Below, piece by piece: positions 8,666 to 10,186 of a DNA stretch of 44,529 nucleotides (positions are counted from its first letter, which is position 1; each line of letters opens with the position of its first letter). The notes under the pieces were generated by a model, which had not been told where the DNA came from, ran no database searches, and worked only from the letters and a program-made list of their open reading frames with translations. The position numbers were made by a program, and so were the translations under genes. The stretch is from Escherichia phage SP1: the sequence record PV610739.1. One strand, 5' to 3'.

Positions 8666-9752
8666 TCAACATATGGCGGATCGCATGATTCGCCGTCACA
8701 TCTTCACCCAGCGCCTGAGCAATGACCAGGCGCGGCGGGTGTTGGCTATGTGGGAGAAGTTCCGGCCCACTTTACTTGGTAAGCTGACCGAGTTACTTGA
8801 TGGCAAAAAGTCCATGAATAACAAGGCACTGACCACTCTGTTAACGCAAATCGACAAGACCGTCAAAACGGAACTGCGCACCGAGTTTAAAGCGCTGGCT
8901 GAAAGCCTTCAGGAGTTCGCCGACACCGAGGCTGATTATCTTGCCGATACATTAACGGCAGCGATCCAGCCAGCGGTCGCCGTACCTGCGGTTGAGGTAG
9001 TTGGCGTTGTGACCGGCGCGCAGATCGCAGCGACGGCTATGAAAAACCCATTCCAGGGAAACACCATGATGCAATGGCCTGATTCACTTTCTGAGTGGAC
9101 CAGGACGCAGATCGGTAATCAGGTGCGCGCTGGATTCATCCAGGGAAAGCCGACTATGGAAATTATCGCGGACGTAAGGCGCGCGCTCGGCGGTCGTAGC
9201 GCGCAAGCAATATCAAGCGTTGTTAAGTCCGCAGTAAACCACTATGCGGCGACCGCCCGCGAATTAATGGTAAAAGCTAATGACGATATTCTCGAAGGTC
9301 GCCAATGGTTGGCTACATTGGATACACACACATCACCTATGTGCCAGCTACGCGATCGCCTGTTTTATCCAGTTGATGTTACTCCCGACACCAAAGGGAA
9401 GCGCGGCGGGAAAGTGGTGGCTGGGTCACAATATGGCGCTGGTCCGGGCAAGCTGCATTATTGCTGCCGGTCTACGGAGACGTGGAAAGTCAAAGGCATG
9501 GAAGATTGGCCCAGTGGTAAGCGTCCGGCACTGAAGGCTGACGCGGGTCGATTGCTGAGTGAGCAGGTCGACGCGCAGACTGATTTCTTCTCATGGGTGC
9601 AACGCCAGCCGCGCCATATCCTGGAGGAATTATATGGGGTGCAGCGCGCTGACCAGATTATGCGCGGCGTGAAAGTGCCGAAGATGTTCACCGATACCGG
9701 CGAACTAATGACTATTGCACAGCTTAAAAACCGGGGGTTATGGCGTGATTAA
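8649..9752 (+). CDS. head morphogenesis / minor head protein
   Basis: 367-aa ORF overlapping portal 3' end; call by synteny (portal-adjacent), family not confirmed. Confidence 0.6.
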   Translation: MARTINQHMADRMIRRHIFTQRLSNDQARRVLAMWEKFRPTLLGKLTELLDGKKSMNNKALTTLLTQIDKTVKTELRTEFKALAESLQEFADTEADYLADTLTAAIQPAVAVPAVEVVGVVTGAQIAATAMKNPFQGNTMMQWPDSLSEWTRTQIGNQVRAGFIQGKPTMEIIADVRRALGGRSAQAISSVVKSAVNHYAATARELMVKANDDILEGRQWLATLDTHTSPMCQLRDRLFYPVDVTPDTKGKRGGKVVAGSQYGAGPGKLHYCCRSTETWKVKGMEDWPSGKRPALKADAGRLLSEQVDAQTDFFSWVQRQPRHILEELYGVQRADQIMRGVKVPKMFTDTGELMTIAQLKNRGLWRD

Positions 9753-10053
9753 ATATGCAGCGATTGGACTGGTTATCGGTCTGGCGGTTGGATTCTGGCA
9801 GGGTGATTCCTACCGCACTGGCGTTGAGGCGCGAGCGGCGCAAGAAGCGCAAGCGAAAGCCCAACGGCAGCAAACTAAGATTGTTGAGGGGTCGGTGAAG
9901 GCTGAGCAGGCCCGCGACGTGGAATACCGGACTATCACGAAAGAGGTTGTAAAATATGTTACGCGTCCTAACCGTCCTGATTGTAGTTTTGATGCTGAGC
10001 GCGTGCGGATCAAGCAAAGTGCCATCGACGCCGCTAACCGAGTCGGTCTATAG
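9745..10053 (+). CDS. i-spanin (Rz-like)
   Basis: N-terminal TM helix IKYAAIGLVIGLAVGFW then Ala/Gln/Glu-rich coiled-coil; GTG 9745 with GGGGG RBS preferred over track TTG 9715; contains Rz1 in +1 frame. Confidence 0.6.
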   Translation: MIKYAAIGLVIGLAVGFWQGDSYRTGVEARAAQEAQAKAQRQQTKIVEGSVKAEQARDVEYRTITKEVVKYVTRPNRPDCSFDAERVRIKQSAIDAANRVGL

Positions 10054-10186
10054 ACCGCCTTGCACCTTCGAGAATGCCTCGGCAGATCCAGACGAAGACT
10101 TGCTTGTTGATGTTAAAAATATGGAGTGCGGGGCTAAGCTGAGGGCACAAGTGCTGGAGTTGCAGAAAATAATTCGGGGGCCGTGA
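9956..10186 (+). CDS. o-spanin (Rz1-like lipoprotein), overlapped architecture
   Basis: Signal peptide with lipobox LSAC, Pro-rich mature part; starts inside Rz in +1 frame and extends past its stop. Confidence 0.65.
   Translation: MLRVLTVLIVVLMLSACGSSKVPSTPLTESVYRPPCTFENASADPDEDLLVDVKNMECGAKLRAQVLELQKIIRGP

Follow-up and report, generated by a model that had tools for sequence, protein, structure and literature searches.

Spanins act as a pair of inner-membrane and outer-membrane proteins that breaks the outer membrane of the host as phage lysis reaches its final step. Here, we describe the spanin genes of Escherichia phage SP1 (PV610739.1), analyzed as a single stretch of 44,529 nucleotides (the window), in which an initial annotation made from the sequence alone had pointed to two open reading frames (ORFs) at 9745-10186. 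A spanin census (Kongari et al., 2018) placed the phages HK578, JL1, SSL-2009a, EP23, EK99P-1, and SO-1 in overlapped families of inner-membrane (i-) and outer-membrane (o-) spanins termed "Jersey" (PMC6139136), and all of these phages match the family of the window's pair. The short Jersey subfamily, "EP23 to SO-1", was described as having two helices joined by a linker together with conserved o-spanin cysteines, and the short i-spanin linker was reported with a predicted beta strand (PMC6139136). The window is itself the genome of a Dhillonvirus, an HK578-like siphophage. It matches Escherichia phage vB_EcoS_WFI at 96.8% nucleotide identity across its first 25 kb, which align from record position 1 onward, and positions 9000-11000 are 98% identical to those of the BASEL phages Haito_Bas83 and RuthEpting_Bas85.

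The pair in the window is very likely the two-component spanin of this Dhillonvirus and a member of the described Jersey family of overlapped spanins. It shares with the short Jersey subfamily, as represented by HK578, the protein sizes, the overlapped architecture, the conserved cysteines, and the slot after the head-morphogenesis gene, and we found no substantive difference between them, some relatives carrying a 109-residue i-spanin with a longer C-terminal tail. Identity of the two window proteins to their counterparts in other Dhillonvirus genomes is 84-97%, the same two genes are annotated as i-spanin and o-spanin in the BASEL Dhillonvirus records Oekolampad, KarlBarth, GeorgBuechner, and PaulFeyerabend, and the UniRef entry for the i-spanin family is named "I-spanin". 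More than 600 phage genomes contain annotated spanins that are homologues of the pair, and a homologue of the o-spanin is present in 642 phage records. Protein family searches covered PHROG, Pfam, and NCBIfam, complemented by pairwise BLASTP against the lambda proteins. In the PHROG search, phrog_2536 (Rz-like spanin) matched i-spanin residues 1-101 (7.5e-34), and the o-spanin matched phrog_5672 over residues 32-76 (1.3e-25) and phrog_1267 over residues 3-74 (5.5e-12). The spanin reading proposed in the initial annotation thus stands on this PHROG homology, the BASEL annotations, the presence of HK578 in the Jersey census, and the finding of no other credible candidate in the window. Its coordinates were exact as well. 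Both the pair and its location apart from the genes for holin and endolysin had already been catalogued for HK578-like coliphages and their relatives among Salmonella phages, so the finding is correct but ordinary. The features of the pair are as follows.

9745..10053, + strand: i-spanin gene, GTG start, 102 amino acids (ORF translation; phrog_2536; annotation of Oekolampad bas18_0005)
9754..9798, + strand: codons of the i-spanin transmembrane segment, residues 4-18 (N-terminal hydropathy maximum; helix in a low-confidence AlphaFold2 model)
9956..10186, + strand: o-spanin gene, ATG start, +1 frame relative to the i-spanin gene, 76-residue precursor and 60-residue mature protein (annotation of bas18_0006)
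9995..10006, + strand: lipobox LSAC, precursor residues 14-17, with Cys17 as the predicted lipidated residue, then Gly-Ser-Ser
9956..10053, + strand: double-frame region of 98 nucleotides encoding the i-spanin C-terminus and the o-spanin signal peptide (from the coordinates)
9733..9752, + strand: i-spanin start region with a GGGGG Shine-Dalgarno-like run at 9733-9737 and the GTG at 9745 (sequence)
9941..9946, + strand: AAGAGG, Shine-Dalgarno-like, 9 nucleotides 5′ of the o-spanin ATG (sequence)

The predicted topology of the i-spanin is that of a type-II inner-membrane protein, with one transmembrane domain at the N-terminus and a periplasmic part for which helices are predicted. The membrane anchor proposed in the initial annotation corresponds to hydrophobic residues 4-18 (YAAIGLVIGLAVGFW), the sole hydrophobic stretch of the protein, with the 17-residue Kyte-Doolittle maximum (1.95) at residue 1. 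Outside this segment the protein is polar and charged, with abundant Ala, Gln, Glu, Lys, and Arg. The coiled coil named in the initial annotation is at best putative: an AlphaFold2 model based on a Dhillonvirus-only alignment contained helices at residues 3-73 and 84-97, albeit with low confidence (predicted local distance difference test score, pLDDT, of 58.6), and a profile search of the Protein Data Bank returned only matches to ribosomal S5 at chance level. The single cysteine of the i-spanin, Cys80, is invariant in an alignment with the Jerseyvirus and Kagunavirus homologues; alignments of the spanins from Dhillonvirus, Jerseyvirus, and Kagunavirus served to assess the conservation of both cysteines and sequence cores. 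We also observed two forms of the Dhillonvirus i-spanin C-terminus, one of 102 residues (...ANRVGL) and the other of 109 residues (...ANGVGTATAVQVR) (window 10030-10053; relatives L009-L016 and L018-L020). The difference maps to the DNA shared with the o-spanin signal peptide and first mature residues. The two forms agree with the extreme i-spanin C-terminus having been reported as variable (PMC6139136).

The o-spanin carries a standard lipoprotein signal, recognized by regular expression and by translation, in which the signal peptide MLRVLTVLIVVLMLSAC with the lipobox LSAC is followed by GSS. The translation thus bears out the +1-frame lipoprotein with the lipobox LSAC noted in the initial annotation, and the lipobox is conserved among the relatives as LSAC, MSAC, LTAC, or LSGC. 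The residue at position +2 of the predicted lipidated cysteine is Gly and not Asp, leaving the protein without an inner-membrane retention signal; under the established Lol sorting rule, it would therefore be expected in the outer membrane. Two further cysteines lie at mature positions 20 and 42 (precursor Cys36 and Cys58), and Cys17, Cys36, and Cys58 are all invariant in the alignment with the Jerseyvirus and Kagunavirus proteins. Cys80 of the i-spanin and Cys36 and Cys58 of the o-spanin, all predicted to be periplasmic, would be available for homotypic intermolecular disulfides. The description of the o-spanin as Pro-rich held only mildly: the mature protein has 6 prolines among 60 residues (10%), far from the 10 among 41 (24%) of lambda Rz1. 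A C-terminal transmembrane domain was absent from the o-spanin, whose C-terminus (AKLRAQVLELQKIIRGP) is amphipathic and charged. A unimolecular spanin of the T1 gp11 type was ruled out because this domain is absent, and a lipobox scan of the whole window revealed no ORF of such a type.

The two genes share 98 nucleotides, and the o-spanin gene extends 133 nucleotides beyond the i-spanin stop (from 10053 to 10186). This makes the architecture overlapped, in contrast to the embedded one of lambda; the initial annotation had used both words, of which only the former applies. The N-terminal anchor, the lipobox without a following Asp, the adjacent genes in the order i then o, and the periplasmic cysteines are sequence features of the two-component spanin class as defined by Summer (2007) and Kongari (2018). 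We compared the window with 17 Dhillonvirus relatives, comprising 2 GenBank phages and 15 IMG/VR contigs with 76-97% nucleotide identity, and each of them has the two ORFs intact. In the part encoding only the i-spanin, third positions vary in 45 of 70 columns and second positions in 11 of 70. Past the i-spanin stop, the periodicity switches to the frame of the o-spanin, where variable columns make up 30 of 44 third positions and 7 of 43 second positions. Within the shared 98 nucleotides, most changes are at third positions of the i-spanin frame, equivalent to second positions of the o-spanin frame, so that the tolerant o-spanin signal peptide absorbs them. Both spanin genes are thus under strong purifying selection, each in its own frame. 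With its PHROG matches, intact ORFs, and frame-specific variation, the pair is more than a chance arrangement.

The signals for translation are conserved to the same extent. The GGGGG run lies 7 nucleotides 5′ of the i-spanin GTG. The i-spanin gene shares its first 8 nucleotides with the head-morphogenesis gene (GTGATTAA), whose stop is at 9750-9752. The GTG start, the GGGGG run, the 8-nucleotide overlap with the head-morphogenesis stop, the AAGAGG of the o-spanin, and the hairpin at 10176-10194 are kept in 17 of 17 relatives. An upstream in-frame TTG at 9715 was considered as the i-spanin start and rejected because the codon is not conserved, being TCG or CTC in three relatives. The pair is bordered by two features.

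8649..9752, + strand: head-morphogenesis (minor capsid) gene directly 5′ of the i-spanin gene (phrog_241, 3.7e-116; annotation in relatives)
10176..10194, no assigned strand: GC-rich hairpin with T-runs on both strands, overlapping the o-spanin stop (two-strand terminator scan; RNAfold, -19 kcal/mol; terminator annotation of vB_EcoS_WFI)

The order on the + strand is terminase small subunit, terminase large subunit, portal, head-morphogenesis, i-spanin, o-spanin, and hairpin, with the scaffold and major-capsid genes following later. The spanin genes hence end the terminase-portal-head-morphogenesis unit, and the pair follows the head-morphogenesis gene and not the endolysin gene, as the initial annotation had it. 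The hairpin forms a bidirectional terminator that closes the terminase-portal-head-morphogenesis-spanin unit and serves a converging gene on the opposite strand. This minus-strand gene, at 10201..10965 between the spanins and the scaffold gene, encodes Nmad5 (Nucleotide-modification-associated domain 5; PF18757, 7e-56). In the relatives rolling, WF5505, 101114BS4, and CHD5UKE2, the match over 9000-11000 splits in two across a span lengthened by about 570 bp, where a "DNA polymerase III beta subunit" is among the annotated features.

A separate cassette on the same strand contains the genes for holin and endolysin; it is preceded by a helicase-primase gene and several small ORFs and followed by a DNA-repair exonuclease gene and the terminase operon.

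2083..2373, + strand: holin (phrog_2359 holin, 1.5e-32; Bas83_0066 annotated as holin)
2370..2609, + strand: second holin-like membrane protein, 79 amino acids (phrog_2508 holin, 1.4e-24; Bas83_0067 annotated as holin)
2599..3090, + strand: endolysin, a phage lysozyme (PF00959, 1.5e-21; phrog_7, 8.1e-36)

From the endolysin stop (3090) to the i-spanin start (9745), the distance is 6,655 nucleotides, in agreement with the approximately 6.6 kb initially estimated, and the cassette is flanked by terminator-like hairpins at 2048-2077 and 3279-3302. The lysis genes thus sit in two separate units. The initial annotation had likewise considered the lysis functions to be split, and indeed the pair ends the terminase-to-spanin unit while the cassette is separate and terminator-bounded. 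The label "early" that the initial annotation gave to the region of the cassette is at best tentative: a scan of positions 1-12500 for sigma-70 promoters gave 8 sites, as compared with 9.9 in shuffled sequences, and so carries no information on when either unit is transcribed.

Two further observations concern the cassette itself. The 12-bp hairpin at 2048-2077 is followed by TTTTTT, which runs straight to the holin ATG at 2083 (RNAfold, -24 kcal/mol for 2040-2095), and the descending arm of the stem contains the sole purine-rich candidate for a holin ribosome-binding site, GGGA at 2071-2074. The region 2048-2083 could serve both as an upstream terminator and as a block on the initiation of holin translation, with possible control of lysis timing. 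The last gene of the cassette is a conserved 55-codon ORF at 3107..3274 on the + strand, between the endolysin gene and the 3279-3302 terminator, which matches a PHROG of unknown function (phrog_11068, 2.8e-38) and ends in a proline-rich acidic tail (PSPPPPEEPGPAA). It was rejected as a spanin candidate, having no transmembrane domain, no lipobox, and only this one PHROG match.

Beyond Dhillonvirus, the spanins of Jerseyvirus and Kagunavirus (Guernseyvirinae), for example FSL SP-101 gp06 and Bas74_0008/0009, are homologous to the window pair with 35-45% identity. The core EVVKYVTRPxRxxCxF..ERV.IK is common to the i-spanins of the window, Jerseyvirus, and Kagunavirus, and PPC...D.DEDL..DV.N.EC..LR to their o-spanins. 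The position is shared as well: in the Jerseyvirus phages FSL SP-101 and Bas74 and the Kagunavirus phage vB_VIPECOMC04, the spanin genes lie between the head-morphogenesis and scaffold genes as in the window, and in both genera the holin-holin-endolysin genes are located away from the spanins. There are differences in detail. The i-spanin of the two genera is longer (119-128 residues as opposed to 102), and the Jersey spanin genes overlap by 155 bp instead of 98 nucleotides. In both genera, the head-morphogenesis gene is separated from the spanins by a Hoc-like decoration gene and further small genes, and because of these intervening genes the 8-nucleotide overlap with the head-morphogenesis gene is missing there. 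In Jerseyvirus SeF1, the spanins are gp9 and gp10, the holins gp63 and gp64, and the endolysin gp65, and PHROGs 2536, 5672, 2359, and 2508 are the same four as in the window (PMC9409062). In Dhillonvirus P78, the holins are ORF31 and ORF32, the endolysin ORF33, and the spanin ORF40 (PMC12677095). From these gene orders, the split lysis arrangement is conserved across Dhillonvirus, Jerseyvirus, and Kagunavirus and not unusual.

One member of this group has a modified locus. In Kagunavirus vB_VIPECOMC04 (PQ423993.1, 4971-6035), an HNH endonuclease gene occupies 5314-5820 between the i-spanin and o-spanin genes, so that the pair is separated instead of overlapped, and the signal peptide of its o-spanin is another one (MRLPILLLVIGC). 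The same type of switch in spanin architecture was described for T5 and Shivani (Kongari et al., PMC6139136).

The window pair and lambda Rz/Rz1 belong to one functional class and agree in topology: in both, a type-II inner-membrane protein is paired with a lipoprotein of the outer membrane whose gene lies in the +1 frame, and periplasmic cysteines are present. However, membership of the Rz/Rz1 families (PF03245/PF06085) found no support, as there was no Pfam match at E<=0.1 and BLASTP against the lambda proteins gave E=12 for Rz and E=0.67 for Rz1. The name "Rz/Rz1" used in the initial annotation is thus suitable as a functional label but not as a statement of sequence relationship, because no similarity to the lambda proteins is detectable. 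Lambda Rz1 is also fully embedded, with a mature length of 41 residues and 24% Pro, whereas the window o-spanin is overlapped, with 60 mature residues and 10% Pro, and the lambda genes lie directly 3′ of the endolysin gene, unlike the window pair. The pair is an analogue of Rz/Rz1 from another family. T4 PseT.3/PseT.2, the classic unlinked case, resembles the window in that its spanin genes are unlinked from the holin and endolysin genes (PMC6139136). Two periplasmic cysteines and a helix predicted at the C-terminus are further traits of the T4 o-spanin, a likeness to the window o-spanin (PMC6139136), whereas the T4 spanin genes are separated and those of the window overlapped.

Several points weigh against the assignment as a spanin. 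The assignments of Jersey-family spanins in the papers cited here are all sequence-based, and we found no experimental test of any member. Neither protein has a Pfam or NCBIfam match above threshold or any similarity to lambda Rz/Rz1, so that the spanin function rests on family annotation and architecture, and the i-spanin model, given its low pLDDT, is usable at most for secondary structure. The best hit of the Pfam and NCBIfam scans, a sub-threshold match to P2 LysC (Rz1-like) with E=0.047, was not used. Other explanations were weighed. Short overlapping ORFs are common by chance, and the +1-frame ORF is unannotated in many records, including that of the nearest relative, vB_EcoS_WFI, so it might be an accidental open frame in or after a genuine membrane-protein gene. 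Yet the variation turns to the o-spanin frame once the i-spanin gene has ended, the ORF, its ATG, and the AAGAGG are intact in every relative, and homologues with 35-45% identity exist in other genera. We give practically no credence to an accidental frame, which these conservation data have already refuted. Alternatively, the genes could be spanin homologues that are dispensable or vestigial, the outer membrane being broken by a disruptin-type peptide or by shear. It is established that spanin defects in lambda are masked by laboratory shaking without divalent cations, and the lack of experimental backing for the spanin assignments in the family is compatible with this explanation, too. The strong purifying selection in both frames, as well as the cysteines, lipobox, and translation signals that are invariant across Dhillonvirus, Jerseyvirus, and Kagunavirus, speak against vestigial genes, and no alternative candidate emerged from the scan of the whole window for lipoprotein ORFs; we consider such dispensability very unlikely.

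The o-spanin could also be a moron that excludes superinfecting phages or blocks the receptor, as do T5 Llp and the T1/phi80-type Cor, next to an upstream membrane protein unrelated to lysis. Small phage lipoproteins can play such a role, the pair lies inside the structural region, a frequent site of morons, and the reverse-strand accessory gene for Nmad5 adjoins it. However, the PHROG matches of the o-spanin are to spanin families and none to Cor or Llp, and a weak Cor-like match belongs to another lipoprotein ORF in the tail region. The pairing and overlap of the genes, the periplasmic cysteines, and the family-wide classification suit a spanin, and without the pair, the whole-window scan leaves no recognizable means of disrupting the outer membrane. 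An exclusion function of the o-spanin is, in our judgment, extremely improbable, and we retain the two-component spanin of the Jersey family as the explanation. Apart from the o-spanin, the scan for ORFs with lipoprotein signals revealed one credible candidate in the window, the Cor-like ORF, and no other credible spanin. This ORF, at 26829..27050 on the - strand, encodes a lipoprotein of 73 residues (MKTLIMICAVLLSGC..., lipobox LSGC) that matches phrog_4281 and, weakly, the Cor family of superinfection-exclusion proteins (6.4e-4). It lies just upstream of a "moron" membrane protein of 324 residues (25861-26835, - strand; phrog_1265), both being located between the tail-tip and tail-fibre genes. 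The two are likely an exclusion or receptor-masking module and not a spanin. The lipobox ORFs at 40074..40289 (+ strand) and 3205..3414 (- strand) lie over or opposite other features and were set aside as probably spurious.

How the pair could act may be outlined by analogy with the model developed for lambda, T4, and T7 by Young and co-workers. The N-terminal helix would hold the i-spanin in the inner membrane. The o-spanin, with a lipid on Cys17, would be directed to the outer membrane, reside in its inner leaflet, and dimerize via the conserved periplasmic cysteines. The C-terminal regions of the two proteins would bind each other and bridge the periplasm, with the peptidoglycan mesh caging the complexes. 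After release of the endolysin (2599..3090) by the holins (2083..2609) and degradation of the wall, the spanin complexes would be free to collapse and would fuse the inner and outer membranes, removing the last barrier to phage release. As spanin action would be gated by wall degradation, the spanin genes need not share the timing of the holin, and this gating would permit harmless expression of the spanins from the morphogenesis unit.

The placement as terminal cistrons, with the 8-nucleotide overlap and the shared bidirectional terminator, might be taken further as a functional design, not an accident of history, in which the dosage and timing of the spanins would be coupled to capsid assembly and uncoupled from the separately terminated holin cassette, combined with a mechanism in the Jersey family possibly unlike that of lambda. 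The basis offered for the possibly different mechanism is the short i-spanin linker with its reported beta strand and the conserved C-terminal region of the o-spanin. We consider this combined proposal rather unlikely. The more immediate value lies in annotation. The record of vB_EcoS_WFI labels the i-spanin "hypothetical protein" and omits the o-spanin, as do many other records likewise, and the family evidence allows the window pair to be annotated as spanins with confidence. Biologically, the locus brings nothing new: it is one more case of spanin genes unlinked from the holin and endolysin genes, as in T4, Guernseyvirinae, and Dhillonvirus.

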